DNA of 64,000 bases, taken from Escherichia phage vB_EcoM-RPN187. How positions within the stretch are numbered: position 1 is the stretch's first letter; each line of letters opens with the position of its first letter. The translations under genes and the position numbers were made by a program. Shown piece after piece: positions 27,680 through 62,221 of the stretch. Below the pieces are notes generated by a model. That model was not told the origin of the DNA, ran no database searches, and saw nothing but the letters and a program-made list of their open reading frames with translations. The DNA is taken from the sequence record OL770074.2; one strand, 5' to 3'.

Positions 27680-27709
27680 TATAATAACAAAACCTGTACC
27701 AAAGTAAAC
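27680..27709 (-). promoter_or_regulatory. T4 early-type promoter with -10 embedded in an inverted repeat
   Basis: minus GTTTAC-N17-TATTAT; flanking inverted repeat ggtacagg/cctgtacc. Confidence 0.5.
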
Positions 27710-27713
27710 TGTT

Positions 27714-28082
27714 TTATGCAACTTTAATCCAATTGCCTAAATTTAAAACACCTTTGGCTTTCATTTTTTCGATCAGGTTATCTGCTGTAATGCGTCCATT
27801 TTGATACCATGTAACATCTTCAGAGTAACCAGTTTCTTCGTCAACATATGTTTCTGAGCGAATTTTACCGGTAATAATAGTTTTTAATTCGTATGTGTCA
27901 CCAGTGAAAAAGTTTGCTAACACAATTTTCCAAGAGAAATCATTTGAAGGACCTTCAGGGGTCATACAACTTATGAACTCAAATTGCTCTTTGTATAACA
28001 TCCACTGGAATTCTTTAATTTCGATAGCTTTATAACCGTCGTGGTCTTTACATTTGATGTATGAGTTCAGATTGATTTTCAT
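27714..28082 (-). CDS. hypothetical protein
   Basis: 122-aa ORF. Confidence 0.5.
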   Translation of the reverse strand: MKINLNSYIKCKDHDGYKAIEIKEFQWMLYKEQFEFISCMTPEGPSNDFSWKIVLANFFTGDTYELKTIITGKIRSETYVDEETGYSEDVTWYQNGRITADNLIEKMKAKGVLNLGNWIKVA

Positions 28083-28123
28083 TTTATTCTCCGGTTGTTT
28101 TATTGATTAGGTGGTACAAGTCT

Positions 28124-28153
28124 ATAGTAACACATCCTACAGGAGAGTAAACA
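28124..28153 (-). promoter_or_regulatory. T4 early-type promoter
   Basis: minus GTTTAC-N17-TACTAT. Confidence 0.5.
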
Positions 28154-28189
28154 TCTTTTTTAAACTTTTTCTGCCCTAAACGCACAAAA

Positions 28190-28207
28190 GGGAGACCGAA
28201 GTCTCCC
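28190..28207 (-). terminator. CUUCGG tetraloop hairpin terminator
   Basis: GGGAGA-CCGAAG-TCTCCC (identical 18-mer family) downstream of small ORF stop, followed by T-rich tract on minus. Confidence 0.7.
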
Positions 28208-28212
28208 TAAAA

Positions 28213-28392
28213 TTATGCAACAACCTTTCCAAAACGAGAAGCATCATCTCGAAGAACTGCACGTGCTCTGCGCATGATCTTCTCAACTGTTTGATTAATA
28301 CGAGAGTTCGACCCACGCTTGTATCCAGCGCGTTTAGAGGTACCATCAACTTTCTTTTCTACTGCTTTCTTTGCTTTAGCTTGTTTTGCCAT
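28213..28392 (-). CDS. small basic Lys/Arg-rich protein (hypothetical, not in ORF track)
   Basis: 59-aa ORF MAKQAKAKKAVEKKVDGTSKRAGYKRGSNSRINQTVEKIMRRARAVLRDDASRFGKVVA; terminator hairpin immediately downstream. Confidence 0.45.
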   Translation of the reverse strand: MAKQAKAKKAVEKKVDGTSKRAGYKRGSNSRINQTVEKIMRRARAVLRDDASRFGKVVA

Positions 28393-28662
28393 TATAAATT
28401 CTCTTTAAATGAAAATGCAGGACTTATTGACATTGCCTGCTCAAGCCCTCAAGGGGAACATAGGTTTTTGAATATTTAACGACCAGGATAACCATAAACC
28501 CGTCATCATACCTACCACGACTTAGACAGATAACCTTTTTCTGACGCGTGATAGTACAAAATACATTCAAGAGGTACACCGTAAAATTGTCGGGGCGGTA
28601 CTTCTAAAACATACCGATTCGCAAATCGATAATCAGACAATTCGACGGCTCCTCGATTTAAC

Positions 28663-28911
28663 TTACTTCAGGGTAATAACAAAATGACGAACTGCTTTAC
28701 GTGCTGCAGAAGCCAGAGGCTTAGCATATTTCAATTCATCTTTCTGGACCAGGATATCACGAAGATCAGCTTGTGCTGGATTCAGATGTTTGAAATACTG
28801 TAAGATTTCAAGAGCTTCGGCTTCAACATCAATAGATGCACCGTAATTTTCATGGCCATTATTCCATGCATGGCGTTGCAGTTCAAGAGCGTGTTGTAAT
28901 TGTTTAATCAT
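28663..28911 (-). CDS. rIII: rIII lysis-inhibition accessory protein
   Basis: 82-aa ORF (T4 rIII 82 aa); position just upstream of gene 31. Confidence 0.8.
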   Translation of the reverse strand: MIKQLQHALELQRHAWNNGHENYGASIDVEAEALEILQYFKHLNPAQADLRDILVQKDELKYAKPLASAARKAVRHFVITLK

Positions 28912-29035
28912 TTTAAATTCTCAATTCGAGATAATATTTAGTAGCCACGTTCTTCTGAATTTCACTTTCTTTCGACAAGTCTCTCAGGTGTAGGCTACCG
29001 CTTAGAAGAGTGTTCTCTTCATATAGTTATTTATA

Positions 29036-29368
29036 TCACTTATAAAGACACGGAATAGCTTTATAGTGGCATGTTACGAATTTCTGTTTAATTTCTTTAG
29101 GTTGTTTAAGACCCAAAGCCACAAATGGATGTGGAACATTTCGAATTTGTCCAACTGGTAGTGGAGTCAAATCACCGACTTCAACAAAACCTTCAGGAAC
29201 ATCAGGACCTACAGAATGAACTACACATAGTTCAGGAACTTCACCTTGAACACGTTTACCAATCACAAGTCCTGATTCTGTAACTTCTTCATCACCTGCT
29301 TGAGCTGGTTCAGAAACCAGAATGACATATTCACCAACAGCACGAATTGGGAGTTGTACTTCAGACAT
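29036..29368 (-). CDS. 31: gp31 co-chaperonin (GroES analogue for gp23 folding)
   Basis: 110-aa ORF (T4 gp31 111 aa); synteny rIII-31-cd. Confidence 0.85.
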
Positions 29369-29425
29369 CTTATTTCCTTATTGTTTGACGATAGATTAAT
29401 AATACCATACTATTCGTAAAGCATA

Positions 29426-29734
29426 TTACATAAGAAGCAAACGTTCTACCGGAGTGCCATCAACCGAAATTACTTTATCAAGGCGGAAAGAACGCCACTG
29501 ACCTAACTTGGTGTCGAATGCTCGAACTGATTCACGAGGTTCATAACGAACTTCTGTTGCTGGATTGTTATTTTCGTATTTGACTTCAAGTTCATCGCGC
29601 GAAGCAAACATAGTGCGTACCTCGCCGTTAGCCTTTTCAAATACAACACAATGAACGCCTACAGACAGAATAGTTTTAATACGTTCACGAAGAACCATAG
29701 TTTCTTGTTCAGTTAAAATCATATTATTCACCAC
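29426..29734 (-). CDS. hypothetical protein (T4 31.1 position)
   Basis: 102-aa ORF, start-overlaps cd stop. Confidence 0.5.
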   Translation of the reverse strand: MVNNMILTEQETMVLRERIKTILSVGVHCVVFEKANGEVRTMFASRDELEVKYENNNPATEVRYEPRESVRAFDTKLGQWRSFRLDKVISVDGTPVERLLLM

Positions 29735-30305
29735 AAAAGTTTCGGATTTGTTCCCAATTCAGAGAACGAAGATTATTACGAGAGTACTGAATTACTTCAA
29801 TACCGGCTTGTTTTAGAATGTCTGCCCAATTTTCAGGAGATCGATCGTATAATTCTGCGTATACAACCTTTTTAATACCTGACTGCGTAATAGCTTTAGT
29901 GCAATCAGGACACGGAGAAAGCGTCGTATATAACGTAGCACCTTCAATAGAATTACCTTTACGAGCTGCAAACAAAATTGCGTTCAGTTCCGCATGGATT
30001 TCGTTATTAGCAGACCATGCACTATGAGCCGCTCGATGTTCTTTAGCCAAAACAAAATTATCTGCCCGTCCAAATGCCGTAGTGCCTTCTTTATGTCCAG
30101 CAACGATGACCGGACTTGGTTTATTCTTCAACCAACCATTTTCGGATGCATGTTCGCAACAGTTAACGCCACCGGCCGGTGAACCATTATATCCAGTAGA
30201 GATAATGCGCCCATCTTTTTCAATGACGGCACCAACTTTCCATGAACAACATTTTGATTCTTGAGAAATCAAATAAGCAATTTGAAGATATGTGCTAGCT
30301 TTCAT
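29724..30305 (-). CDS. cd: dCMP deaminase
   Basis: 193-aa ORF; zinc-binding HAE (HAELNAI) and PCPDC motifs; T4 Cd 193 aa. Confidence 0.95.
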   Translation of the reverse strand: MKASTYLQIAYLISQESKCCSWKVGAVIEKDGRIISTGYNGSPAGGVNCCEHASENGWLKNKPSPVIVAGHKEGTTAFGRADNFVLAKEHRAAHSAWSANNEIHAELNAILFAARKGNSIEGATLYTTLSPCPDCTKAITQSGIKKVVYAELYDRSPENWADILKQAGIEVIQYSRNNLRSLNWEQIRNFCGE

Positions 30306-31297
30306 TATTGAACCTTATTAATATAAGTTAACAGCTCTTTAGTTTGTTCCCAACTGATGCACGCATCGGTAACGGAAACGCCATAGGACATATTATCAGA
30401 AATTTTTTGATTTCCTTCATGTAGGAATGATTCTATCATAATTCCTTTGACCAAATCATTAGCTGCTAAATTTTTACCAATACCAATTTGATTGCTATAA
30501 CACCCATCAGCGTTTGCATGGCTACAGTCAACCATTACATAATGATTCAGACCTAATGCACTTGCTTTGTTAGAAGCTTCTTGAATATCAGAAGAATGAT
30601 AGTTCGGGCCGTTGGTCCCACCACGCAATACGATATGCGTATTCTGATTACCTTCAGCTTCAACAATGCCTACAGTACCATCGACGTCCATACCCATATA
30701 CCGATGAGGCCAGGCGGCACTATACATCGCGTCTGTAGCTACTTTAATAGAACCATTGGTTGCGTTCTTGAAGCCTACGCACATCGGTAGACCTGAAGCA
30801 ATTTCACGATGTGTCTGACTTTCAGTCGTACGGGCGCCAATAGCAACCCATGAGAAAATACCAGAAAGATACTTAATTGTGAATGGGTCTAATACTTCAG
30901 TTGCTAATGGAAGTCCCATACGTAGAAGTTTACGACACAATGTTCGTGCAACTATAAGACCGTGGTTCATATCAAAACTTCCGTCAAGATATGGATCATT
31001 TACAAGACCTTTCCAACCTACGGTAGTTCGAGGCTTTTCAAAATAAACGCGCATCACTAACAGAACATTAGGAAGACGAGTTTGAAGTTCAGCCAGACGT
31101 TTGCCGTATTCAACAGCAGCAATAGGGTCATGAATTGAACAAGGACCTACAACAATAAGTTTGCGTGGGTCTTCACCGTTCATAATCGAATTAACTTGTT
31201 CGCGATGAGAAGCCACTTGTGATGCGTAAGCTTCCGACAAAGGAATAATCTCAGCCAGTTCTTTTGGAGAAATAAGTTTTCTGATGACAGGTAACAT
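30305..31297 (-). CDS. 3-deoxy-D-arabino-heptulosonate-7-phosphate (DAHP) synthase, class I AroG/AroF-like
   Basis: 330-aa ORF; AroG-like motifs LIVVGPCSIHD, KPRTTVGWKGL, GARTTESQ, DCSHAN, ESFLHEGNQ, TDACI; SD TAAGGA; start overlaps cd stop. Confidence 0.85.
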   Translation of the reverse strand: MLPVIRKLISPKELAEIIPLSEAYASQVASHREQVNSIMNGEDPRKLIVVGPCSIHDPIAAVEYGKRLAELQTRLPNVLLVMRVYFEKPRTTVGWKGLVNDPYLDGSFDMNHGLIVARTLCRKLLRMGLPLATEVLDPFTIKYLSGIFSWVAIGARTTESQTHREIASGLPMCVGFKNATNGSIKVATDAMYSAAWPHRYMGMDVDGTVGIVEAEGNQNTHIVLRGGTNGPNYHSSDIQEASNKASALGLNHYVMVDCSHANADGCYSNQIGIGKNLAANDLVKGIMIESFLHEGNQKISDNMSYGVSVTDACISWEQTKELLTYINKVQ

Positions 31298-31417
31298 AAC
31301 AATCCTTAGGAGATATAAACAGATTCTGATTCAACAATACCTTTAACCGGATTAGACAGGCTAAGTTAGTAGTGCTCAGATTTATGACCATTCTCGATAG
31401 TAATTAGATAACTCTCA

Positions 31418-31654
31418 TTATAGTGTTCCATATACTCGAGTTGCTTCAACGAGACCATCACTGCCTAATTTAAGATTAGTAATTTGGTCACCATCTTTAG
31501 GATTAACGATTATGAGAAAAGAACGAGGAGATTCTTGAATAACTCGTAATGTTGCATCCTGGAAACGTTCAGACACTTTATTGATGAGTGTTTGAGCGAA
31601 TTCTTTTACTTTAATCTGAAATTCGTGTACTGTAATTGGATTTTCACTTAGCAT
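31418..31654 (-). CDS. hypothetical protein
   Basis: 78-aa ORF with early promoter upstream. Confidence 0.5.
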   Translation of the reverse strand: MLSENPITVHEFQIKVKEFAQTLINKVSERFQDATLRVIQESPRSFLIIVNPKDGDQITNLKLGSDGLVEATRVYGTL

Positions 31655-31673
31655 TTCTATTTCCTCATTTGTT

Positions 31674-31702
31674 GGTAGAGTTATAGTATCACAACTCCAC
31701 CA
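31674..31702 (-). promoter_or_regulatory. T4 early-type promoter
   Basis: minus GTTTAC-N17-TACTAT. Confidence 0.5.
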
Positions 31703-31714
31703 TGTTGTAAACCA

Positions 31715-31990
31715 TTAAATTGCTTTGCATTCAATTTTTTGTGAATCGAAATCAACTTCACATTGAATTACTAGATCAGCGTCAAGTCCAAACACAACAA
31801 TCACATGAGCCGAGCTTGGCAACAGTGTAACAGACACAGAATCCACTTGGTCTGGCACCAGCGTATTCAAAACGTAGAGTAGTTCAGAGTGGATCTTAAG
31901 CTCGGTGGCCGTATCCGGCTTATCAAAGAAATGATTTGCGATAATCTGACTAAAAACTACCTTTACAATTTCAGAATATTTAGGGAACAT
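31715..31990 (-). CDS. hypothetical protein
   Basis: 91-aa ORF. Confidence 0.5.
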   Translation of the reverse strand: MFPKYSEIVKVVFSQIIANHFFDKPDTATELKIHSELLYVLNTLVPDQVDSVSVTLLPSSAHVIVVFGLDADLVIQCEVDFDSQKIECKAI

Positions 31991-31997
31991 AATTACC

Positions 31998-32222
31998 TCA
32001 GTGCACAGTATTTACTTTAACTCGAACAACAAATCGCTCGGTTGGTTCACCTACAGGAACAAACTCTACATGATATTCACCTTTGTAACGAGTATTCAGA
32101 TCATTACGAATTCCTGCGAGTTTGTTGATTAATGTAGGACTCATATTAAGTCCCACTAGTTTACGAAGCATTTTGTATGCTTCATCTTCGATTTCATGAT
32201 GTTTATCGTACATAGTTTTCAT
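31998..32222 (-). CDS. hypothetical protein
   Basis: 74-aa ORF. Confidence 0.5.
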   Translation of the reverse strand: MKTMYDKHHEIEDEAYKMLRKLVGLNMSPTLINKLAGIRNDLNTRYKGEYHVEFVPVGEPTERFVVRVKVNTVH

Positions 32223-32393
32223 TTAACCATTCAATTGCCTGGTCGACGTTATCAAATATACTGCCGTCCAACCATTCTTCATGTTCATAGTCCAGCACAT
32301 CAATACCGAACCGTCCATTTACTAAAGGCCATACTACAAACAAATATTCTTTATGCTGTTCGATGGCCTCAATCACTTCATATAATCGTTTCA

Positions 32394-32394
<1 letters not shown>
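32203..32394 (-). CDS. hypothetical protein
   Basis: 63-aa ORF, acidic; ATGA overlap with pseT start. Confidence 0.45.
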
Positions 32395-33480
<1,086 letters not shown>

Positions 33481-33481
<1 letters not shown>

Positions 33482-33780
33482 TATTTTATTCCTAAGAAAA
33501 TTTCAAGAATACGAATGTTATGCTCGCGCCGGTCTTTATTAATTTCAGCAACGTTTTTATTAATTGACGTACTTCTAACGTTTGAAGAAATAAATTTAAT
33601 CATATGACTTTTGAGTTGTTGCAAATCCAACCCTTTTTCTTTAGCAGCTTTACGAAGAGCTTTACCTGCTTCATCTAGTGCCTTTGCTGCATCTTTGTCA
33701 TAATTGCCAAGTGACATTCCACGGCAGATATCAATATACTCATCAGACCGTTTGATGTAATTCTCTAGTAATGTTTTCAT
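33481..33780 (-). CDS. hypothetical protein
   Basis: 99-aa ORF, basic. Confidence 0.5.
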
Positions 33781-33808
33781 TTAGATTTCCTCAATTATCC
33801 ATAGGAGC

Positions 33809-33838
33809 ATTATACTCTGCTCCTGAGAGTTTGTAAAC
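33809..33838 (-). promoter_or_regulatory. T4 early-type promoter, -10 TATAAT inside inverted repeat
   Basis: minus GTTTAC-N18-TATAAT; IR ggagca/tgctcc flanks -10; near-identical to promoter at 61410-61439. Confidence 0.55.
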
Positions 33839-34062
33839 TATTTTACTAAAGATTCAATATACTCGTGAAGAGCTTTAGTCGCTACTGCCCACTTATTCTG
33901 ATATTCATTTTTCAGATTAGCACGAGACTGAACTAACAATCGGTCATTAGTCGGAGGCAAAGATTCTAATCGTTGAATCTGGCGCCCATAAATCATAGCC
34001 GCCATTTCAGATTCATAGATAAGCCCTTTAATGTATTCATGCTGTTCTTTAGTCATTGGCAT
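33838..34062 (-). CDS. hypothetical protein
   Basis: 74-aa ORF. Confidence 0.45.
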   Translation of the reverse strand: MPMTKEQHEYIKGLIYESEMAAMIYGRQIQRLESLPPTNDRLLVQSRANLKNEYQNKWAVATKALHEYIESLVK

Positions 34063-34343
34063 TTTTCCTCTTTTAAACCACTACGATAATAACATATCAT
34101 AGTCTTCTGGTCATGTACGTATCTTTTTACGTCGTTTAACCAGATACGAAATTCTTGAGAGTCTTCAAATGGCATTCCAACCCACGGATTACCATCAATA
34201 ACCTTTACTTGCCATTTCTGGTTATATTCAACAATAGATTCAGGCCATGGCGGATGTAAAGTTTCTTTAGGGCTTAAGGGCACATCCTGGGCACATCCGG
34301 CTAAAATGCCAATAGATAATACAACTGCAGTTAATTTAATCAT
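34053..34343 (-). CDS. predicted small lipoprotein
   Basis: 96-aa ORF; signal peptide with lipobox MIKLTAVVLSIGILAG-C. Confidence 0.5.
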   Translation of the reverse strand: MIKLTAVVLSIGILAGCAQDVPLSPKETLHPPWPESIVEYNQKWQVKVIDGNPWVGMPFEDSQEFRIWLNDVKRYVHDQKTMICYYRSGLKEEKCQ

Positions 34344-34696
34344 TCTGAGAGCTTCCTGAGGTCTTCTGCAAAGGAATCGAAGGACCTGTTGATTTGTTTT
34401 TCGACCAATCCTGGTTTACTTGCCACCACGTTCTTCTTCTTCGAATCCTTACGGAGCTTTTCATTTTCGGCCTTAAGTTGGTCAACTAAAACACGGTTCT
34501 TATAAGTCATTTCTTCGATTGACTGATATTGAACCTTGAAGTCGTCTAATACTTTAGCATTGTTTTTAGCAGTCTCTTTAACAGAAGCTAATTCATTATT
34601 CAACGAATCAACTTTGTTGTTTAAGACAACTATTGTTAGCGTAGAAACTAGAGCAAAAGCTGCTACCATAGCATAAATCGGATTTACTTTAAGCAT
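34340..34696 (-). CDS. predicted single-pass membrane protein with coiled-coil
   Basis: 118-aa ORF; N-terminal hydrophobic helix (AMVAAFALVSTLTIVVL) then charged helical region. Confidence 0.5.
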   Translation of the reverse strand: MLKVNPIYAMVAAFALVSTLTIVVLNNKVDSLNNELASVKETAKNNAKVLDDFKVQYQSIEEMTYKNRVLVDQLKAENEKLRKDSKKKNVVASKPGLVEKQINRSFDSFAEDLRKLSE

Positions 34697-35183
34697 GTTT
34701 TAATAATCTCAATGATTTCATCTCGGGATAATCCATTGATAAGAACGGTTTTCGGACCATCACACTGGATTTTGTACGATTCAAACAATACACACAACTC
34801 TTCTGCTGTATGATACGGACTTGAAATTCCGAGGCGATTGAATTTGTCGGTAAGAGGGTCGCAAATAATGTAGAATTTTATACCTGAGATATGTACGTTT
34901 GGTTGACTAATATTAATGAACACATTAGCGTCATATTTAGTCAAATTGTTTTGAAGAAATTCTACCATGGCATTAACTGCTTCCGGCATCGCTTCACGTT
35001 TCTCTTCGGTGTAACGTGTTGAATATTCCTTTTGCTTTAACTTCTTTTTAGCATTTTTCGCTAGAGTAGTACGAAGGTCCGTAAGATAACCAACTGCACG
35101 GCCTTTCTTAAAGACTCGGATTCCATCTGTAGAATCACCAAATGCTGCCACAACCATATCGTTAGTAATCAATTGCATATTCA
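34684..35183 (-). CDS. alc: Alc-like protein (host transcription termination on dC-DNA), tentative
   Basis: 166 aa from MNMQLITN (SD GAGGAG); T4 Alc is 167 aa and sits immediately downstream of rnlA. Confidence 0.5.
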
Positions 35184-35214
35184 TAATTTTCTCCTCGTGT
35201 TGTTGATAAAAGCC

Positions 35215-35244
35215 ATAGTAACACCTTCCTTGGTGTTTGTAAAC
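35215..35244 (-). promoter_or_regulatory. T4 early-type promoter
   Basis: minus GTTTAC-N18-TACTAT. Confidence 0.5.
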
Positions 35245-35246
35245 CA

Positions 35247-36380
<1,134 letters not shown>

Positions 36381-36426
36381 TCAGTTAGTTTTTTTAAATT
36401 GTACCACAATCCTTGTGGCATGTAAA

Positions 36427-36837
36427 CTACTTTTTCTTATGTTGGATATTCCAAGGCGGGTTGAACTTTTTGATAAAAAGCGGTTCTTCAAGGTCCATTG
36501 TTGCGATGGTCATTGAACCAAGTTCGTTGGTGACTGAAAGGTCAAAACATTGGCGGGCCCAGAATTCAACCTTTTTGCCTTGCATTAAGGCATCCAAAAT
36601 CATAAGTGATTTTCTTGAATCTGAAGTCTGGTCTTTTCGATTTATGGCTGTTCGATAATAGTTAATGCGTTTCTTTAAATTCTTGGTTTTACCAATATAC
36701 ACAAGCTCGTCATCTATAGCAATAGCGTATATGACATTTTTCTTATTAGGGACATCAACTGTTTTAATTGTTGCATCTTCTAATAGCTCCAATTCTGTAT
36801 ATTTAATAAAGGAATATTCGGCGGCAATATCTTTCAT
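36427..36837 (-). CDS. denA: endonuclease II (DenA)
   Basis: 136-aa ORF (T4 DenA 136 aa); GIY-YIG-like segment VIYAIAIDDELVYIGKT; position next to nrdB. Confidence 0.8.
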   Translation of the reverse strand: MKDIAAEYSFIKYTELELLEDATIKTVDVPNKKNVIYAIAIDDELVYIGKTKNLKKRINYYRTAINRKDQTSDSRKSLMILDALMQGKKVEFWARQCFDLSVTNELGSMTIATMDLEEPLFIKKFNPPWNIQHKKK

Positions 36838-36845
36838 AATAAAGT

Positions 36846-36859
36846 GGGACCGAAGTCCC
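36846..36859 (-). other. UUCG-tetraloop hairpin between nrdB and denA
   Basis: GGGAC-CGAAG-TCCC. Confidence 0.5.
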
Positions 36860-36863
36860 GTCC

Positions 36864-38054
36864 TTAGAAATATTTTTTGTATGAATTGATTACATTTTGG
36901 TCTACATCATTATCAATTTGTGCGACAAGATAAGAACTGATTTCAACTTCCTGAGGAGCTGCTTGAACTAAATCAGAGTTCAGATATTCACGAATCCAAG
37001 GATACGGATGCTTGGTCGGAGCATCAGTGATTGGGCAGGGTAAACCACACTGTTTCATACGAGACACAGTCAAGTAATCAACAAAAGCACACATACTCTG
37101 CGTATTGATACCTGGACATGTACCGTCTTTAAAGAGGTGTGCAGCCCATTCCTTCTCTTGACTATTTACTTCCATAAAAATGCCAACTGCTTCTTGTTCA
37201 CATTCTTTAGCAATTTGAACCCACTCATCACCGTCAGTACCAGATTGAAGTTGACGGATAATGTACTGAGTACCCTTTAGGTGGAGTTGTTCGTCACGAG
37301 CAATGAACTTCATAATCTTTGCATTACCTTCCATAATTTCCATATTTTTATGGAAGTTGAAAGTACATGCGAAAGATACATAAAAACGAATAGCTTCCAA
37401 GGCGTTAATTACATGAAGGCAAAGATAAAGAGATTTCATTAGCTCACGCTTCCAATATGTCTCATGCTCAATAGCATCTTCAATAACGTCTTCGTCTGCA
37501 TTAATTTCTTTTTGGTATTTGATATCAGCTTTAGCGTTTTCCCAATAACGAGTTTTAACCAGAACATCATCGTAATATTTACCTATTGATTCAGCTCGTT
37601 TCATGATTGCTTCGTCTAATACAATCTCATCAAATACCTTAGACGGATCGGTATAAAGATTTCGCATAATATGAGTATACGAACGAGAGTGAATAGTTTC
37701 GCTGAATGTCCATGTTGCAACCCACGTATCTAATGAAGGGTCAGAAATCAGTGCCATAAGTACCGCAGATGGGGCTCTGCCTTGGATAGAATCTAATAAT
37801 GATTGATACTTAAGATTGTTTGTAAAGATGTCCTGTTGGAACTGAGGAAGCTTATTGAACTGCGCAGAGTCCAACATCAAGTTTACCTCTTCGGGGCGCC
37901 AGAAAAACGAGAGCTGACGTTCAATAAGTTCTTCAAATACTCGATGTCGTTGAATATCATAACGAGCTAAACCTAATCCAGAACCAAAGAACATCGGTTC
38001 ATTCAAAACATCAACTTGTTGTGTGTTAAAAACTGTACTCATTATATTTCTCAC
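36864..38054 (-). CDS. nrdB: ribonucleotide reductase small subunit NrdB (intron-less)
   Basis: 396-aa uninterrupted ORF with class Ia R2 ferritin-like features; T4 nrdB carries a group I intron, none here. Confidence 0.93.
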   Translation of the reverse strand: MRNIMSTVFNTQQVDVLNEPMFFGSGLGLARYDIQRHRVFEELIERQLSFFWRPEEVNLMLDSAQFNKLPQFQQDIFTNNLKYQSLLDSIQGRAPSAVLMALISDPSLDTWVATWTFSETIHSRSYTHIMRNLYTDPSKVFDEIVLDEAIMKRAESIGKYYDDVLVKTRYWENAKADIKYQKEINADEDVIEDAIEHETYWKRELMKSLYLCLHVINALEAIRFYVSFACTFNFHKNMEIMEGNAKIMKFIARDEQLHLKGTQYIIRQLQSGTDGDEWVQIAKECEQEAVGIFMEVNSQEKEWAAHLFKDGTCPGINTQSMCAFVDYLTVSRMKQCGLPCPITDAPTKHPYPWIREYLNSDLVQAAPQEVEISSYLVAQIDNDVDQNVINSYKKYF

Positions 38055-38094
38055 TTAGTTTAACTCATCCATGAGTAAATTATAATCAAAAGTC

Positions 38095-40350: not shown

Positions 40351-40437
40351 ACATTCCTCAGTACAGGTTGGTAGACATTACTCCAAACGGGATAGTATTT
40401 ATCCCGTTAATTTATTATACACTTTTAAACTGAAGCG

Positions 40438-40692: not shown

Positions 40693-40693
40693 T

Positions 40694-42404
<1,711 letters not shown>

Positions 42405-42421
42405 TTTTATTTGATAGGGCT

Positions 42422-42451
42422 ACTATAACATAGCCCTATCTTGTTATAAAC
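42422..42451 (-). promoter_or_regulatory. T4 early-type promoter with -10 in loop of a 9-bp inverted repeat
   Basis: minus GTTTAT-N18-TATAGT; IR gatagggct/agccctatc. Confidence 0.45.
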
Positions 42452-42843
42452 TACTTTTTAAAAGTTTTTTGCAAAAGTTTGATGATTTCGTCGACGTTGG
42501 TTTCATCTACGATACAATGGATTTTTGTTACACCTAAAGTTATACCTTCATTAGTAGGTTGAGGCTTTACTAAATCTACCTCAGTAAAGTATTTGAACTC
42601 GTCAGGATAAATCTCAAAATAAGTTTCAATTTCACCACCAGCAGAACATACCGTACCATCTTCCATAGTTACACTTACTACGTTTGACGTATCGCTATCA
42701 TAATCAGGTTCCATTCCGTTTACAACAAAACTAGGCCCGTGAAGTTCAATCAATTTTAACATCTTAGCGTTATTGTGTGGTGCTTCTTGAACAAAGTCGT
42801 CTTTAAACAAAGGGTTAATGATATAAGATTTTCCGATTTCCAT
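42451..42843 (-). CDS. hypothetical protein (frd.2 position)
   Basis: 130-aa ORF. Confidence 0.5.
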   Translation of the reverse strand: MEIGKSYIINPLFKDDFVQEAPHNNAKMLKLIELHGPSFVVNGMEPDYDSDTSNVVSVTMEDGTVCSAGGEIETYFEIYPDEFKYFTEVDLVKPQPTNEGITLGVTKIHCIVDETNVDEIIKLLQKTFKK

Positions 42844-42872
42844 TTTGATTTCCTCATGTTGTTGATAGAACT

Positions 42873-42901
42873 ATAATATCACATCTAGGGAAGAAGTAAA
42901 C
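42873..42901 (-). promoter_or_regulatory. T4 early-type promoter
   Basis: minus GTTTAC-N17-TATTAT. Confidence 0.5.
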
Positions 42902-42933
42902 AACTTTTTTTGGCAATTTACAGATACTCAAAA

Positions 42934-42951
42934 GGGAGACCGAAGTCTCCC
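42934..42951 (-). terminator. CUUCGG tetraloop terminator after gene 32
   Basis: GGGAGA-CCGAAG-TCTCCC 7 nt after gene 32 stop, followed by T-run on minus. Confidence 0.8.
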
Positions 42952-42957
42952 GATTTA

Positions 42958-45231: not shown

Positions 45232-46138
45232 TAATTACACTTGTTAATTTAGAAAGACCAGATTTTACAAAGTATGAATAAATCTTGCCTTTAGGTTGTG
45301 GTTTATATGAGTTATAATACTCTATAATGGTTGAAGCAATATTATCAGGGATATAATCAAAATCAATGAGAACCAAATTTTCTTGATACCGTTTATATTC
45401 TTCTGCACTTAATAATACTTCAGCTTGAGAACGGTCATTGGCAATTGCTTCAATAATCGTTGTTTTCATGCTCGGAGTTCGTTCACCATCAACTCTGGTA
45501 AACCAGAAGTCGCCGCGAACTCGAACAGATGCAACGCCGTCTTTACGGTCACCTTTAAGAATTTTAGTCATGCAATCAATTTCAGCAGAACCGTTCTTAA
45601 TTTTAACCCATTTTTTCTGTGGTGGCGACCACTGTTTAACGTTAGGATATTTGTGTAATTGTGTAAAGTCACCATCTGATGCAACAATACATACCTTATG
45701 TCCAGTTAATGACAAATATTTAGTTAATACACCGATATGGTCATCCGCTTCATACTTGTCAATATCCATTACAACGTATGGCATGTATTTCTTAATCTCA
45801 TCAACAACTTGACGGAGCGCAGTAAAATATCCTTCCCAATCCCACTTTGAAGCTTCACGATCGGTTTTACGATTTTTCTTGTAATAGTAAGCAAAGTCAC
45901 GACGCCAATAACCTGAAGTAGCATTATCCATACACAATACAAATTTTGTATAGCCTTGCTTACGGAACATCACTACGTTTTTACGAATTGAATTCAAGAT
46001 TACATGGCGAACCATCGGAACAGTAATTTTATCACCGTCTTCAAAGTTGTTTAATGCAGCTGCTAATGCAATGTTACTAAAGTCGGCAAGTGCAATACCT
46101 TCTTTGTAATCTTCATCCAACATCATTTCTAAATCCAT
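45221..46138 (-). CDS. rnh: RNase H (5'-3' exonuclease / flap endonuclease)
   Basis: 305-aa ORF (T4 Rnh 305 aa); FEN-like acidic clusters. Confidence 0.9.
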   Translation of the reverse strand: MDLEMMLDEDYKEGIALADFSNIALAAALNNFEDGDKITVPMVRHVILNSIRKNVVMFRKQGYTKFVLCMDNATSGYWRRDFAYYYKKNRKTDREASKWDWEGYFTALRQVVDEIKKYMPYVVMDIDKYEADDHIGVLTKYLSLTGHKVCIVASDGDFTQLHKYPNVKQWSPPQKKWVKIKNGSAEIDCMTKILKGDRKDGVASVRVRGDFWFTRVDGERTPSMKTTIIEAIANDRSQAEVLLSAEEYKRYQENLVLIDFDYIPDNIASTIIEYYNSYKPQPKGKIYSYFVKSGLSKLTSVINEF

Positions 46139-46170
46139 ATGAACCTCTTGTTCAGTTAGTCAACTTGACT

Positions 46171-46200
46171 ATAGTAACATACTCATTTGAAAGCGTAAAC
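46171..46200 (-). promoter_or_regulatory. T4 early-type promoter for rnh
   Basis: minus GTTTAC-N18-TACTAT. Confidence 0.5.
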
Positions 46201-56252: not shown

Positions 56253-56525
56253 TTAGTTGTTAGAATACATCGCTAAATGACGATAAATATTTTCAAAACC
56301 TTCATTGAATTCACTAATCAGTGTTTTCTTTTCTTCGGCAGTTAAATTTGTAATTAGTTTTCTGAACGAATTCTGATTTAGCTGCCGACCATCTTTTTTA
56401 ATTCCAATCTCATTCAAGAATCCGATGAAACTTGCTCGGTCTTCAACAATATCTTCCCTAGAGAATTTAATCAAAATAGAAGCAATAGTAATAATTTCAC
56501 GTACGATTTCAATATCTTTATTCAT
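56253..56525 (-). CDS. asiA: AsiA anti-sigma70 factor
   Basis: 90-aa ORF near-identical to recalled T4 AsiA (MNK.I..VREIIT.ASILIKFSREDIVE.RA). Confidence 0.95.
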   Translation of the reverse strand: MNKDIEIVREIITIASILIKFSREDIVEDRASFIGFLNEIGIKKDGRQLNQNSFRKLITNLTAEEKKTLISEFNEGFENIYRHLAMYSNN

Positions 56526-56559
56526 AACGTTTTATTCATTCCACTTAGTTGATATGGAT

Positions 56560-56589
56560 ATAGTACCATTATCAGTGTTGATTGTAAAC
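56560..56589 (-). promoter_or_regulatory. T4 early-type promoter for asiA
   Basis: minus GTTTAC-N18-TACTAT. Confidence 0.5.
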
Positions 56590-58386: not shown

Positions 58387-59019
58387 TCACAGTACGTTAG
58401 TTACAAGGGTAATGATTTCTTTGGATACATTAGGGAAGTCAATGTAAGTATATTTACCACCGATCTTAATCTTAACATCGTTTTCAAGAGAAGTAAACAG
58501 TTTTGATTCAGTTTCTGACATGTTGTATGCAAATATTCTAAGACAACCATCTCGACGAATTTCAATCTGACGAATACCTAGAACTCGTTTTGCAAATCGA
58601 ACTTCCAAGTTACTACGGTTTTCACCAATTTCTTTAACTTCAACTTTATCTTTAATATTTTCAAAAACAAAGTTTGCTAATTCATGCATTTCGGGAGTAA
58701 CTCCACGTGCTTTTCTAGTGTTACGTTTCTGAAGAAGTTCTGGAGCATTTTCTTGGGCAAAGAGGTCTGCAGCTTTTTGGATAATATCCATTGCTTCGCC
58801 TGTTGCTATAAGTCCATCACCGGATTTTTCGACTAAACCTTTCTTAATCAATACACCAATGTTAGAGTTAACAACCGATGCATTGTATTCCGCTTCCAGA
58901 GCTTCACGGACATTGGCAGCAGTGGTGAAGTTGTTCTTAATGATATAAACCATTATTGCAGCAGTTTTTTCATTCAGAGCGTTTTCAGAAGCTTTGATGA
59001 TGTAAGCAACTTTAGACAT
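58387..59019 (-). CDS. motA: MotA middle-transcription activator
   Basis: 210-aa ORF; N-terminus MSKV.YIIKAS...LNEKTA and VLIKKGLVEKSGDGLI match recalled T4 MotA. Confidence 0.9.
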   Translation of the reverse strand: MSKVAYIIKASENALNEKTAAIMVYIIKNNFTTAANVREALEAEYNASVVNSNIGVLIKKGLVEKSGDGLIATGEAMDIIQKAADLFAQENAPELLQKRNTRKARGVTPEMHELANFVFENIKDKVEVKEIGENRSNLEVRFAKRVLGIRQIEIRRDGCLRIFAYNMSETESKLFTSLENDVKIKIGGKYTYIDFPNVSKEIITLVTNVL

Positions 59020-59058
59020 TTTATTTCTCCAATTTGGTTGTTTTGTTTTGATAGGTCT

Positions 59059-59087
59059 ATAATATCATGTTTGAAGCACATGTAAAC
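59059..59087 (-). promoter_or_regulatory. T4 early-type promoter for motA
   Basis: minus GTTTAC-N17-TATTAT. Confidence 0.5.
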
Positions 59088-59114
59088 TGTTTTGTGAGAA
59101 AAAATGCACAAAAA

Positions 59115-59128
59115 GGAGCCGAAGCTCC
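59115..59128 (-). terminator. UUCG-tetraloop hairpin downstream of gene 52
   Basis: GGAGC-CGAAG-CTCC, followed on minus by T5. Confidence 0.6.
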
Positions 59129-59205
59129 CTAATCATGTTTGTCCAACCAATACAGCCAAATCACTAGTGCAGCTATTGCACCGAGAAATCCCAAGGCTAG
59201 GGCAC

Positions 59206-60858: not shown

Positions 60859-60918
60859 CTTTAGTTTTAAGATTGTTACGATAGAACTGCATCACATGTT
60901 CGTTATGGAAATTACTCA

Positions 60919-61365
60919 TTAGTAAGCCTGCAGGATGAATTTAAAGTTATCAGCCAACATACGGTTCATTTCTTCCAGAGTCTGGAAGTCGGAACTATGA
61001 TTGCGAGTGAATGCCAGAGCCAATTGTCCTTTACCATAACCAGTGGTCAGTGGTTTCATGTTCTTAGCTGCAACAAAGATTACATCATATTCGATATTGT
61101 TAGTGCCCATGGTACGGGCTAGTTGCGAACGGCCTTGACGAATGTGAGAAAGAATTGCATCCAACCCTTGTTTAGAACGTTGACGTCCTACAAAGAATCG
61201 TGCTGCTACTTGGCGCCAATCAGATGAACCTTTAACAAAGAAGTAAAAACCTTCACGAGAACGAAACTCTTTAGAAACTTCAGAACCGTATTCGCCATTA
61301 CGAACTACTGCAACAACTTCACCACCAACTGCCAGAAGGTCTTTACGAGTTAAATATTTGGACAT
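60919..61365 (-). CDS. ndd: Ndd nucleoid disruption protein
   Basis: 148-aa ORF; C-terminal half near-identical to recalled T4 Ndd (RFYVGNQRSKQG...LADNFKF.LQAY). Confidence 0.9.
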
Positions 61366-61409
61366 GCTAATTTCCTCAATTGATTAATGTTTTTGTAATC
61401 CATGAGAGC

Positions 61410-61439
61410 ATTATACTCTGCTCTCAAGAGTTTGTACAA
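61410..61439 (-). promoter_or_regulatory. early-type promoter for ndd, -10 TATAAT inside inverted repeat
   Basis: minus TTGTAC-N18-TATAAT; IR gagagca/tgctctc; paralogous to promoter at 33809-33838. Confidence 0.5.
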
Positions 61440-61441
61440 TT

Positions 61442-61642
61442 TTATTCGGTTATATCAGAACGTTCAAAAAGCTCTTCGACAGTTAAACATTCGGTGTCAT
61501 CCTCAATAAAGAATCGGGTCCAACACGTCGGGGCGATGCAGTTATGAGTTTGTCCGGCTATAGAAGCTACACGAATAAGCTGTTGACCATTATTCAGGAC
61601 AAATTTTTCACCAATTTCAACATCTTTAAAAAGCTTAGCCAT
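61442..61642 (-). CDS. hypothetical protein
   Basis: 66-aa ORF with Cys/His pattern (HNCIAPTCW...C). Confidence 0.5.
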   Translation of the reverse strand: MAKLFKDVEIGEKFVLNNGQQLIRVASIAGQTHNCIAPTCWTRFFIEDDTECLTVEELFERSDITE

Positions 61643-61670
61643 TTTGTATTCCTCATGTTTTGATAGGACT

Positions 61671-61700
61671 ACTATACCATAATCCTACCTTGATGTAAAC
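61671..61700 (-). promoter_or_regulatory. T4 early-type promoter
   Basis: minus GTTTAC-N18-TATAGT. Confidence 0.5.
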
Positions 61701-61702
61701 AA

Positions 61703-61727
61703 TTAAATTACATTAAATTACATTAAA
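61703..61727. repeat. short tandem direct repeat (AAATTACATT x2.5)
   Basis: aattaaattacattaaattacattaaaat. Confidence 0.6.
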
Positions 61728-61823
61728 ATATGTTAAAGCCAACCATGTTCCGGTGAACGAACATGCGATGTAAAAACCTGTATCGCAAATTGTTCTTAGT
61801 ACAATAATAAGTGCATTTTTCAT
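61713..61823 (-). CDS. candidate small hydrophobic peptide
   Basis: 36-aa ORF MKNALIIVLRTICDTGFYIACSFTGTWLALTYFNVI; ATGA-coupled to upstream peptide ORF. Confidence 0.3.
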   Translation of the reverse strand: MKNALIIVLRTICDTGFYIACSFTGTWLALTYFNVI

Positions 61824-61906
61824 AAGTACCTCAATGCAATTGAAAATATTATACAAATCATAGGGATACTAAGCAACCATATTCCGATCCACGTTTTAGA
61901 GCTCAT
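61820..61906 (-). CDS. candidate small hydrophobic peptide
   Basis: 28-aa ORF MSSKTWIGIWLLSIPMICIIFSIALRYL; ATGA-coupled to ORF 61903..62166. Confidence 0.3.
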   Translation of the reverse strand: MSSKTWIGIWLLSIPMICIIFSIALRYL

Positions 61907-62166
61907 ATCTCAACTTCCGCGAGTTCCATATATCCTTTGTTGATAACCTCTTTAAGGTCTTTAGAAAGAATAACACTAAAATGGTCGTTCATATGTCCAT
62001 TAACCAGACGAGTTATTTCGGCTTCAGATGACATATAAGGCACGTCTGAGTCCCAATGAGATAGACCCAAATGGGTATAAATCATCCCTTCGTCATCTGC
62101 GGTGTTGTACATTGAAACAAATTCACCTGTTACTTTATGTTTTGCGTAGAAAAATTTAAATTTCAT
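61903..62166 (-). CDS. hypothetical protein
   Basis: 87-aa ORF with early promoter upstream. Confidence 0.5.
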   Translation of the reverse strand: MKFKFFYAKHKVTGEFVSMYNTADDEGMIYTHLGLSHWDSDVPYMSSEAEITRLVNGHMNDHFSVILSKDLKEVINKGYMELAEVEI

Positions 62167-62191
62167 GATGTTATCCTCTTTTAGATAGGAC

Positions 62192-62221
62192 TACTATATC
62201 ATAGTCCTACTTAGTTGTAAA
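62192..62221 (-). promoter_or_regulatory. T4 early-type promoter with -10 inside inverted repeat
   Basis: minus GTTTAC-N18-TATAGT; IR ataggact/agtccta. Confidence 0.5.

Follow-up and report, generated by a model that had tools for sequence, protein, structure and literature searches.

The window analysed here is a 64,000-nucleotide stretch of DNA from Escherichia phage vB_EcoM-RPN187 (OL770074.2). It is 95-98% identical to Mosigvirus phages and, judged by this identity, is a segment of an RB69-like (Mosigvirus) T4-type phage genome; gene names were taken from the RB69 and AV112 annotation. The motif GTTTAC-N17/18-TAnnAT was found 14 times, each time on the minus strand; the number expected is 0.59 (sd 0.71, max 3). 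Of these matches, 11 fall within 27680-62221. The match at 58498 was not counted as a cassette, as it lies within the motA ORF and has neither leader nor RBS. Four extra cassettes deviate from the motif, with TATAGT as -10 or a changed -35 (62222, 61700, 42451 with GTTTAT and 61439 with TTGTAC). In total, 17 credible early promoter cassettes are present on the minus strand of the window, 14 of them within 27680-62221, where a sequence-only reading had slightly generously counted at least 15. All are built alike: A-rich sequence lies upstream of GTTTAC, 17-18 bp separate this from TAnnnT, and a conserved leader, an SD and an ATG follow. With a PWM made from the 17 cassettes, each scores at least 20 bits, a circular value for these sites since the matrix was trained on them, while the next minus-strand site reaches 5.5 and the top plus-strand site 5.1. 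The motif excess and the shared layout confirm that these are paralogous cassettes, as had been proposed. They are sigma-70-type early promoters of an RB69-like (Mosigvirus) T4-type phage, and the genes that they precede include orthologs of T4 early genes, among them motA, asiA, alc, ndd and frd.1.

In seven of the 17 cassettes, a 7-11 bp inverted repeat encloses the -10, with loops of 6-13 nt:

27637..27709, minus strand, gene 30.7 cassette (-35 27709-27704, -10 27686-27681, ATG 27639)
27668..27702 (27702-27692 / 27678-27668), minus strand, gene 30.7 hairpin, TTGGTACAGGT / ACCTGTACCAA, 11 bp, 13-nt loop, -20.1 kcal/mol as RNA
31652..31712, minus strand, cd.2 cassette (motif match)
31673..31702 (31702-31693 / 31682-31673), minus strand, cd.2 hairpin, TGGTGGAGTT / AACTCTACCA, 10 bp including one G.U, -16.9 kcal/mol
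33778..33838, minus strand, RB69ORF231c-like gene cassette (motif match)
33803..33824 (33824-33818 / 33809-33803), minus strand, RB69ORF231c-like hairpin, AGGAGCA / TGCTCCT, 7 bp, -12.2 kcal/mol
42387..42451, minus strand, frd.1 cassette (-35 GTTTAT, -10 TATAGT)
42413..42440 (42440-42431 / 42422-42413), minus strand, frd.1 hairpin, GATAGGGCTA / TAGCCCTATC, 10 bp, -18.7 kcal/mol
61363..61439, minus strand, ndd cassette (-35 TTGTAC)
61403..61426 (61426-61419 / 61410-61403), minus strand, ndd hairpin, TGAGAGCA / TGCTCTCA, 8 bp, -14.6 kcal/mol
61640..61700, minus strand, ndd.1 cassette (-10/-35 variant)
61664..61687 (61687-61680 / 61671-61664), minus strand, ndd.1 hairpin, TAGGATTA / TAGTCCTA, 8 bp including one U.G, -13.7 kcal/mol
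62164..62222, minus strand, RB69ORF270c-like gene cassette (-10/-35 variant)
62185..62210 (62210-62202 / 62193-62185), minus strand, RB69ORF270c-like hairpin, (G)TAGGACTA / TAGTCCTA(T), 8-9 bp, -13.4 kcal/mol

The five inverted repeats reported earlier were all recovered in place, and those at 61700 and 31712 are new. The spacer holds the 5' arm, the loop holds the -10 and the 3' arm spans about -6 to +7. The hairpins end 6-25 nt before the SD, adjoining the conserved AUCAACAA leader, and no contact with the SD was found for any of the window's hairpins. Folding energies of the seven promoters range from -12.2 to -20.1 kcal/mol (z -1.6 to -5.5), whereas the other 10 stay at background (-4.3 to -10.9 kcal/mol, z -1.3 to +0.7). 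As a control, the 5' region of one promoter was cross-paired with the 3' region of another. The observed mean best stem was 5.53 bp against 4.0 when cross-paired, a mean reached by none of 5000 permutations, and stems of 6 bp or more numbered five where 1.17 were expected (P=0.002). A U-tract follows none of the seven embedded hairpins, and none was classed as terminator-like on the minus strand, which makes efficient intrinsic termination at them doubtful.

The remaining cassettes, and the separate terminators, are as follows:

28080..28152, minus strand, 30.8 cassette, no hairpin enclosing the -10
28190..28207, minus strand, terminator hairpin upstream of the 30.8 promoter, GGGAGAC-UUCG-GUCUCCC, then UUUU
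35182..35244, minus strand, alc cassette, just a small spacer-internal hairpin ACACC..GGUGU
36369..36427, minus strand, rnlA cassette, spacer-internal hairpin CCACAA-gga-UUGUGG, -8.3 kcal/mol
42841..42901, minus strand, frd.2 cassette, no hairpin enclosing the -10
42934..42951, minus strand, terminator after gene 32, GGGAGAC-UUCG-GUCUCCC, then UUUU
46136..46200, minus strand, rnh cassette, divergent from gene 34, no hairpin enclosing the -10
56525..56589, minus strand, asiA cassette, overlaps the end of the upstream ORF, no hairpin
59017..59087, minus strand, motA cassette, no hairpin enclosing the -10
59115..59129, minus strand, terminator upstream of the motA promoter, GGGAGC-UUCG-GCUCC, then UUUUU
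21329..21390, minus strand, alt.-3 cassette, outside 27680-62221, weak 5-bp stems only
9060..9180, minus strand, unnamed cassette, outside 27680-62221, long leader, no hairpin enclosing the -10
6274..6336, minus strand, unnamed cassette, outside 27680-62221, no hairpin

The hairpin promoters closely follow the upstream gene, with -1 to 12 nt between its stop codon and the -35 at all seven. The stop codon of 30.8 lies 4 nt ahead of the -35 of the gene 30.7 promoter and that of cd.3 2 nt ahead of the cd.2 promoter, while the pseT.1 stop TAG and the frd.2 stop overlap the -35 of the RB69ORF231c-like and frd.1 promoters. Eleven of the 17 promoters abut an upstream gene in this way, and all seven with a hairpin are among them (probability 0.017). 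An embedded hairpin is not obligatory at such places, since four abutting promoters (36427, 35244, 21390 and 56589) have no strong one. At the four promoters with long upstream spacers, a canonical UUCG hairpin with a U-tract is present instead; the window holds six canonical GGG..UUCG..CCC hairpins, each with a T-rich tail downstream.

We then compared the arms. Over the seven sites they fall into five unrelated sequence families (GGTACAGG, TAGGrCTA, rGrAGCA, GGTrGAG and AGGGCTA), and what is conserved is complementarity rather than sequence. The arms covary among paralogs, and also when orthologs from Mosigvirus, T4 and VR5 are compared, which answers the covariation check set by the sequence-only reading. 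For cd.2, the arms are TGGTGGAGTT/AACTCTACCA in the window, GGTAGAGTT/AGCTCTACC in T4 and TGGTAGGACT/AGTCCTACCA in VR5; within small samples of 7-8 sequences per family, 92.9% of cells of this stem are paired against 24-55% in slid controls, and three pairs are altered on both sides relative to T4 and VR5, which was equalled by one of 500 shuffles. Both-sided change affects four pairs in the ORF231c/ndd family, where the ndd hairpin is compensatory relative to 33838, RB69 42501 and the VR5 ndd promoter. The promoters at 33809-33838 and 61410-61439, described earlier as differing by a 1-nt indel, in fact show five substitutions over 30 nt: the -35 has two of them (GTTTAC vs TTGTAC), and the other three lie in or beside the 5' arm. 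Compensating changes in the 3' arm match the two inside the 5' arm (AGGAGCA/TGCTCCT vs GAGAGCA/TGCTCTC); the third adds an outer T:A pair. In the frd.1 stem, G:C pairs are lost or gained as pairs (paired indels) in T4, VR5 and CF1, and the core of the gene 30.7 hairpin, GGTACAGG/CCTGTACC, is kept in T4 and VR5. These results indicate that the inverted repeats are a structure under selection for pairing.

The mismatches tolerated in the five stem families are all G.T wobbles on the sense strand, that is, A.C on the other strand. Among unique variants, 18 G.T/T.G, one A.C and seven other mismatches were counted within helices; these are not independent events, and correspond to an estimated 8-9 or so independent wobble sites. 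The A.C and other mismatches are confined to marginal, chance-level helices outside the five families, and control mismatches are 19% G.T and 10% A.C. C-to-T and A-to-G changes are both seen. The RB69ORF231c-like arm is GGGAGCA (G.U) in SF, JK45, RB69 and VR5, the frd.1 hairpin has G.U variants in AV112, LF82-1, JK45 and JK36, and the ndd.1 hairpin of LF82-1, TAATCCTA, is all Watson-Crick. In 26 of 27 variants the sense RNA is stabler than the antisense; the difference averages 4.0 kcal/mol, compared with 0.73 for random windows from this region. The hairpin structure is sense-strand specific. A sense-strand ssDNA structure is also conceivable, since G.T pairs are tolerated in ssDNA hairpins too.

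The cassettes belong to a kind published for T4-type phages as PeSLs (promoter-early stem-loops; Arbiol et al. 2010, PMC2839356; Comeau et al. 2014, PMC4122927), and are real but largely known. In PeSLs, likewise, the stop codon of the upstream gene sits in A/T-rich sequence together with sigma-70-type -35 and -10 boxes and a stem-loop, and the SD and ATG come after them. The stem-loop may overlap the -10 or sit in the spacer, stems hold G-T pairs, and the cassettes are multi-copy, about 60-100 bp long and located at ORF insertions/deletions between close relatives. They were described for RB49/phi1 (G-rich/C-rich stems, TTGACA -35) and also for nt-1/KVP40, but not for RB69-like phages, and in PST/T4 the stem-loops are drawn just upstream of the promoter. 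The window also differs in that just seven of 17 cassettes have an embedded hairpin and four have a separate UUCG terminator. In the promoter descriptions of Nolan et al. 2006 (PMC1524935), GTTTAC -35 early promoters were predicted for RB69; there and in those of Hinton 2010 (PMC2988021), T4/RB69 early promoters have, as here, a GTTTAC -35, a TAnnnT -10, an A-rich upstream element and a GT-rich or TGn extended -10. The consensus passages of these two sources make no mention of inverted repeats around the -10. At T4 e, soc, 49 and I-TevI, the promoter lies within the 5' arm of an RNA helix exclusive to longer transcripts (PMC3014915). There too the 5' arm is upstream of the local start, so that the helix occurs in read-through RNA only and separates two transcript classes. 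However, those promoters are late and their 3' arm sequesters the SD or AUG, while the 3' arms of the window stop short of it. Like intrinsic (Rho-independent) terminators, the window's hairpins are stable and stand directly after a gene; unlike these, including the T4-type UUCG-tetraloop ones, they have no U-tract and their 6-13 nt loops contain the -10. In coliphage N4, promoters of the virion RNA polymerase are hairpin-form, the inverted repeat being integral as in these early promoters. The N4 hairpin has a 3-nt loop and is the recognition element for the phage polymerase, reportedly at all such promoters, whereas the cassettes of the window rely on the host sigma-70 holoenzyme and the repeat is missing from most promoters of the class.

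We propose that the hairpin is probably active in read-through RNA, as a 3'-end element of the upstream cistron, and give this a probability of roughly 0.65. Transcripts from the local promoter would lack the 5' arm, and the hairpin would form solely in RNA reading through from the upstream gene. There it may attenuate or pause read-through, or shield a processed 3' end, doing the job that separate UUCG terminators would do where the intergenic space is longer. One PeSL stem-loop cut lacZ expression as strongly as rrnB T1 (PMC2839356; PMC4122927). We infer both the active form, most likely the read-through RNA, and the effect of the hairpin on it. The sequence-only reading rightly placed the arms mostly upstream of the start, but took this to speak against RNA, overlooking read-through from the abutting gene.

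The hairpin could instead insulate processing or translation in the read-through RNA rather than attenuate transcription, which we consider unlikely. It might be a structured boundary beside an RNase E site in the AU-rich leader, the processed read-through mRNA then resembling the promoter-proximal transcript, or it might keep the downstream SD clear of upstream pairing. The missing U-tract, the position next to the AUCAACAA leader and the documented RNase E processing of T4 polycistronic early mRNAs (PMC3014915) are consistent with this. So is a second hairpin class in relatives: its 5' arm, located within the promoter spacer, base-pairs with the SD, which shows that read-through and local transcripts are told apart at the RNA level. 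The hairpins of the window, on the other hand, do not touch the SD, and the sole PeSL stem-loop assayed acted as a terminator/attenuator (PMC2839356).

A role in DNA is very improbable, even though the arms flank the -10 mostly upstream of +1; it would be that of an operator for a dimeric early-promoter regulator or of a cruciform, both suggested earlier, or of a non-template-strand hairpin, the extruded forms modulating promoter opening or serving as a recombination site. A common operator is not supported, since arm sequences are unrelated and orthologs swap sequence while retaining complementarity; the strand-specific wobbles and the weaker antisense fold make a symmetric cruciform unlikely. 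Moreover, 7-11 bp stems with 8-13 nt unpaired centres are poor candidates for cruciform extrusion. The repeat is also missing from 10 of 17 promoters of the same class. In favour of a recombination site, PeSL recombination joints were mapped inside a stem-loop in RB49 (PMC2839356), and one indel joint here adjoins the frd.1 hairpin.

The least probable reading is that the repeats are functionless and kept by template switching at quasi-palindromes, which could perfect an imperfect repeat in one step and so mimic compensatory change. Such mutation is reportedly well known in T4 from Ripley's work, one terminator loop reads UUCG in the window and its reverse complement, CGAA, in the close relative LF82-1, and the GenBank record of T4 mentions that an 'inverted complement' was corrected at the cd.2 promoter hairpin loop. 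But a preference for sense-strand G.T over A.C would not be expected from template switching, which also leaves unexplained both the restriction to promoters abutting an upstream gene and the persistence of hairpins at the same four or five promoters in three genera despite sequence turnover.

Finally, extra ORFs of relatives are located at cassettes, and cassettes coincide with indel joints. Two promoter cassettes bracket the extra ORF at the motA promoter and at the frd.1 promoter, the motA cassette being duplicated on either side of it in LF82-1 and AlbertHofmann. At frd.2, an extra RB69 ORF (ORF245c) is joined within the conserved leader, and the second copy retains the leader and SD only. 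The repeated cassettes probably serve as recombination substrates through which small ORFs are gained and lost.

RB69, VR5, CF1 and T4 do have early promoters whose hairpins pair with the SD, those of RB69 lying outside the window.

The part of the window from 27000 to 45000 aligned over its full length, at 95-98% identity, with AV112, SF, p000v, and other Mosigvirus (RB69-like T4-type) Escherichia phages; about 170 Mosigvirus and 600 Tequatrovirus records gave matches. Following the annotation of AV112 and RB69, the minus-strand gene order is alt, 30, 30.x, rIII, 31, cd, pseT, alc, rnlA, denA, nrdB, nrdA, td, frd, 32, 59, 33, dsbA, and rnh; the tail-fibre genes 34-38 and t come next on the plus strand, and then asiA, arn, motA, 52, ac, ndd, denB, and rIIB on the minus strand. 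The pattern GTTTAC-N17/18-TAnnAT gave 14 exact matches against 0.59 expected, all of them on the minus (early-gene) strand. When one hexamer was relaxed at a time and a leader with a Shine-Dalgarno sequence (SD) and an ATG was required, 17 credible cassettes were obtained in the window, predicted from their sequence to be sigma-70-type early promoters of the form GTTTAC(-like)-N17/18-TAnnnT. They are named here by the first base of the -35:

62222, minus strand: promoter of an RB69ORF270c-like gene, inverted repeat enclosing the -10
61700, minus strand: ndd.1 promoter, inverted repeat enclosing the -10
61439, minus strand: ndd promoter, inverted repeat enclosing the -10
59087, minus strand: motA promoter
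56589, minus strand: early promoter cassette
46200, minus strand: rnh promoter
42901, minus strand: frd.2 promoter
42451, minus strand: frd.1 promoter, inverted repeat enclosing the -10
36427, minus strand: early promoter cassette
35244, minus strand: early promoter cassette
33838, minus strand: promoter of an RB69ORF231c-like gene, inverted repeat enclosing the -10
31712, minus strand: cd.2 promoter, inverted repeat enclosing the -10
28152, minus strand: early promoter cassette
27709, minus strand: 30.7 promoter, inverted repeat enclosing the -10
21390, minus strand: early promoter cassette
9180, minus strand: early promoter cassette
6336, minus strand: early promoter cassette

With a weight matrix, none of the 17 cassettes scored below 20 bits; the runner-up on the minus strand reached 5.5 and the top plus-strand site 5.1. 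As the matrix was trained on the same 17 sites, only the score gap is informative. In most cassettes, an SD (GAGG or GGAG) and then an ATG lie 30-60 nt past the -10, and A-rich stretches (e.g., aaaagt, aaaata) are found upstream. The sequence-only reading had counted at least 15 such cassettes in 27680-62221: the promoter class stands, and the number there comes down to 14 credible ones. Both the GTTTAC -35 and the overall layout match the early promoter consensus known from T4 and RB69 (PMC1524935 and PMC2988021), and 57 such promoters were predicted in RB69 (PMC1524935). An exact GTTTAC-N18-TAAGAT was also present on the minus strand at 58469-58498, inside the motA coding sequence and without leader or ribosome-binding site; it is probably a chance match.

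We then looked at the hairpins around the -10. The five inverted repeats proposed earlier were all found, with Watson-Crick stems of 7-11 bp, and two further stems, of 8 bp at 61700 and 10 bp at 31712, were detected, each with one G.T pair. The 1-nt indel said to separate the promoters at 33838 and 61439 turned out to be five substitutions in 30 nt. As a control, the spacer of each promoter was paired with the downstream segment of every other promoter, which keeps positional composition. The best stem had a mean of 5.53 bp, versus 4.0 when cross-paired, and none of 5000 permutations got to the observed mean; stems of at least 6 bp were five for 1.17 expected (P=0.002). Folded as RNA over 55 nt from the -35, the seven hairpin cassettes gave -12.2 to -20.1 kcal/mol (z -1.6 to -5.5) and the other ten -4.3 to -10.9 kcal/mol (z -1.3 to +0.7). 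Over the 17 cassettes, seven stem-loops overlap the -10, three are small and spacer-internal, four are canonical UUCG hairpins upstream, and three cassettes have none. The hairpin is thus not a general feature of the promoter class: since ten of the 17 fold at background, the repeat marks a subset. Rfam covariance models gave no match at the gathering score in the whole window.

The sequence-only reading had staked its case on covariation of the repeat arms, and the arms do covary, among paralogs as well as among orthologs in Mosigvirus, T4, VR5, and CF1. For paralogs, the stem is AGGAGCA/TGCTCCT at 33838, GAGAGCA/TGCTCTC at 61439, and CGAGAGA/TCTCTCG in a third member, in RB69; likewise, TAGGGCTA/TAGCCCTA at 42451 stands against TAGGACTA/TAGTCCTA at 62222. 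A search of IMG/VR for relatives by the Ndd protein gave 3 loci only; therefore, the orthologs were taken from GenBank phage records, namely those of T4 (Tequatrovirus), VR5 (Dhakavirus), CF1 (Moonvirus), and seven Mosigvirus genomes. Downstream of cd.3, the stem arms of the promoter read TGGTGGAGTT/AACTCTACCA in the window, against GGTAGAGTT/AGCTCTACC in T4 and TGGTAGGACT/AGTCCTACCA in VR5, so that position 7 goes from A:U to G:C, position 8 from G:C to A:U, and position 9 from U:A through U.G to C:G. In the seven-ortholog alignment of this stem, 92.9% of cells are paired, versus 24-55% in slid registers, and its three pairs altered on both sides were matched by 1 of 500 shuffles. In the ORF231c/ndd family, both sides are altered in 4 of 8 pairs, a figure that only partly counts the compensatory pairs of the VR5 ndd promoter (CGAGAA/TTCTCG, versus TGAGAG/CTCTCA in the window; T:A to C:G and G:C to A:T), which were read by hand because MAFFT had shifted that promoter by one column relative to its own stem. 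At the frd.1 promoter a stem is retained, G:C pairs being gained or lost in both arms together (window, AGGGCTA/TAGCCCT; T4, AGGGTA/TACCCT; VR5, AGGCTAT/ATAGCCT; CF1, GTTGATAGGGT/ACCCTATCAAC). Finally, no change was seen in the 30.7 stem core GGTACAGG/CCTGTACC across the three genera, with flanking genes only about 82% identical within Mosigvirus. The signal is consistent over the five families, though the samples are small.

The repeats had been proposed to act at the DNA level, as an operator for a dimeric regulator or as a cruciform, and this was not supported. A common operator is unlikely because no half-site recurs, five unrelated arm sequences being found at the seven sites, and orthologs alter both arms while preserving their complementarity. 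To compare the strands, a helix finder with an equal penalty for each mismatch type was applied to 122 unique cassette variants, and helices scoring at least 6 were counted. The mismatches inside them were 18 G.T/T.G (not independent, representing about eight or nine separate sites), 1 A.C, and 7 others, the A.C and the others being confined to marginal helices at chance level. In the cross-paired controls, G.T made up 19% and A.C 10% of mismatches. What reads as G.T on the sense strand becomes A.C on the opposite one, and the wobble sites stem from C-to-T as well as A-to-G changes. Of 27 unique hairpin variants, 26 were more stable as the sense than as the antisense strand, the mean advantage being 4.0 kcal/mol; in random control windows from the same early regions, the difference was 0.73 kcal/mol and the sense was favoured in 57%. 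Such strand asymmetry speaks against a symmetric cruciform. The terminator scan had also flagged 42413-42440 as a plus-strand terminator, a reading rejected on the wobble pairs and energies, both favouring the minus (sense) strand.

Altogether, compensatory changes in three genera, wobble-only mismatches, and the tie to abutting upstream genes described below are evidence that the embedded stem-loops were selected for pairing on the sense strand, and RNA would be the natural carrier of such a structure. Since transcripts initiated at the promoter start within the 3' arm, with no 5' arm, this structured RNA must be read-through from the upstream gene.

The upstream context was then considered. 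The upstream gene ends close to the -35 at every one of the seven hairpin promoters, the distance from its stop codon being -1 to 12 nt; in three of them the stop is TAG, and its G doubles as the first base of the -35 hexamer. An upstream gene abuts 11 of the 17 promoters in this way, and all seven hairpins are among these (chance 330/19448 = 0.017). The remaining abutting promoters include three with small spacer-internal hairpins only, such as CCACAA-gga-UUGUGG at 36427. The four promoters with a long spacer to the upstream gene (59087, 42901, 28152, and 9180) all carry there a canonical hairpin of the GGGAG(A)C-UUCG-G(U)CUCCC type followed by a U-tract, and 46200 (probably also 6336), which has no real same-strand upstream gene, has neither an embedded nor a UUCG hairpin. 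The UUCG hairpins are:

63049-63036, minus strand: UUCG hairpin
59129-59115, minus strand: UUCG hairpin, upstream of the motA promoter
42951-42934, minus strand: UUCG hairpin
36859-36846, minus strand: UUCG hairpin
28207-28190, minus strand: UUCG hairpin
9348-9335, minus strand: UUCG hairpin

All six are GGG..-UUCG-..CCC tetraloop hairpins with a T-rich tail, a clear T-run in four, and two are identical 18-mers (GGGAGACTTCGGTCTCCC). They have the G+C-rich hairpin and direct U-tract of an intrinsic terminator and appear to be the canonical terminators of the early region. By the same definition, none of the seven embedded hairpins has a T-run past its 3' arm, and the terminator scan called none of them on the minus strand.

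The terminator at 59115-59129 reads GGGAGC-TTCG-GCTCC in the window and GGGAGC-CGAA-GCTCCC in phage LF82-1 (L004, about 41200-41220), a reverse-complemented loop that looks like a hairpin-loop inversion. In T4 (L011, 13301-13314, i.e., T4 133300-133313), the ortholog of 31683-31692, which is the loop and -10 of the cd.2 promoter hairpin, carries a GenBank misc_feature, 'inverted complement of previously reported sequence; corrects the early promoter Pe133295 between cd.2 and cd.3'; the earlier T4 sequence therefore had this loop flipped.

The arrangement resembles the promoter-early stem-loop (PeSL) cassettes defined in RB49 and phi1 by Arbiol et al. 2010. In the available text of that paper (PMC2839356), a PeSL consists of an upstream stop in an A/T-rich stretch, a sigma-70-like promoter, a stem-loop with G-T stem pairs in one of five positions (upstream, over the -35, in the spacer, over the -10, or just downstream), and an SD with ATG. 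A terminator or attenuator role for upstream transcription was proposed; one RB49 stem-loop cut lacZ expression like rrnB T1, and recombination between cassettes was shown, function and mini-circles being shown for that one stem-loop and two loci (same text). PeSLs were also described in PST/T4 and nt-1/KVP40 and suggested for all T4-like phages (Comeau et al. 2014; available text of PMC4122927). These were the two PeSL papers found, and the literature searched gave no description of PeSLs in RB69-like phages. All sequence-level defining features are found in the window cassettes, from sequence alone: -35 and -10 at about 17 bp, the A/T-rich stop just upstream of the -35 at all seven hairpin cassettes, the stem-loop, and the SD and start codon.

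PeSLs also lie at insertions, deletions, or replacements of ORFs between close relatives. Comparing indels between the window and six Mosigvirus genomes, we observed three insertions of small ORFs with their joints inside cassettes, the alignments overlapping at the joint in all three. In LF82-1 and AlbertHofmann, an additional ORF of 216 bp is flanked by the motA promoter (59011-59088), with identity extending over the first three codons. LF82-1 also carries an additional ORF at the frd.1 promoter, between two hairpin promoters, one with the window-type stem and one with the T4-type CAGGGTAA/TTACCCTG. For ORF245c of RB69, the joint falls in the frd.2 leader with its conserved AUCAACAA. Full promoter cassettes are thus present on both sides at motA and frd.1, whereas at frd.2 the second copy is leader and SD only. 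The majority of the other indels in the region lie away from recognised cassettes. The window and several relatives share a 1.1-kb segment (30308-31409) that carries a small ORF and a DAHP synthase (aroF-like) gene; RB69 and JK36 lack it, and its joint shows a 13-bp alignment overlap.

A related arrangement is known for T4 e, soc, 49, and I-TevI, whose promoter is contained in the 5' arm of a helix formed only in longer transcripts, hiding the SD (PMC3014915). In that type, the SD or start codon is under the 3' arm, whereas the window hairpins stop short of the SD, and no complementarity of at least 7 bp between spacer and SD was found among the window cassettes. Relatives do have a second hairpin class, in which the -35/-10 spacer is perfectly complementary over 8-13 bp to the SD region (e.g., TTCTCCTCTGGTT / AACCAGAGGAGAA); the SD would be hidden in read-through RNA and free in locally initiated RNA. 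These promoters are:

7429 and 20523, RB69 (L006): spacer-SD hairpin promoters
46016 and 16787, VR5 (L012): spacer-SD hairpin promoters
15324 and 7204, CF1 (L013): spacer-SD hairpin promoters
10311, T4 (L011): spacer-SD hairpin promoter

The best-supported reading of the seven hairpins is a PeSL-type cassette whose embedded hairpin would work in RNA read through from the upstream gene. The hairpin occupies the place of a terminator where room is lacking, but it has no U-tract; we infer that it may attenuate or pause read-through, or protect the 3' end of the upstream message. No usable 3'-end or Term-seq maps of T4 transcripts were found in the literature searched, the matches being on other phages only. 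It is unlikely that the hairpin is a device for self-insulating early promoters, stopping, pausing, or marking incoming RNA where the local promoter fires without a U-tract, or else a non-template DNA hairpin with the -10 in its loop that tunes open-complex formation; a self-insulating device, if true, would mean that a sigma-70 promoter is co-encoded with a non-canonical signal for termination or processing. The PeSL-type reading reveals no new kind of system. It widens the PeSL picture to RB69-like phages, and the pairing evidence points to an RNA-level role in read-through transcripts; comparative evidence for selection of sense-strand pairing was not found in the available text of PMC2839356 and PMC4122927. 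The seven hairpins and their variants offer a concrete set for studying how tightly packed early transcription units are kept apart in T4-type phages.

Two other structures were noted near promoters. The 9180 leader is unusually long (about 90 nt) and carries a hairpin, CCGAGACAGCUCGG, at 9126-9143 on the minus strand, soon after the start site. In the divergent intergenic region between rnh and gene 34, a palindrome, TAGTCAAgTTGACTA, at 46157-46171 on the minus strand begins at the last -10 base of the rnh promoter and is partly changed in RB69-type relatives.
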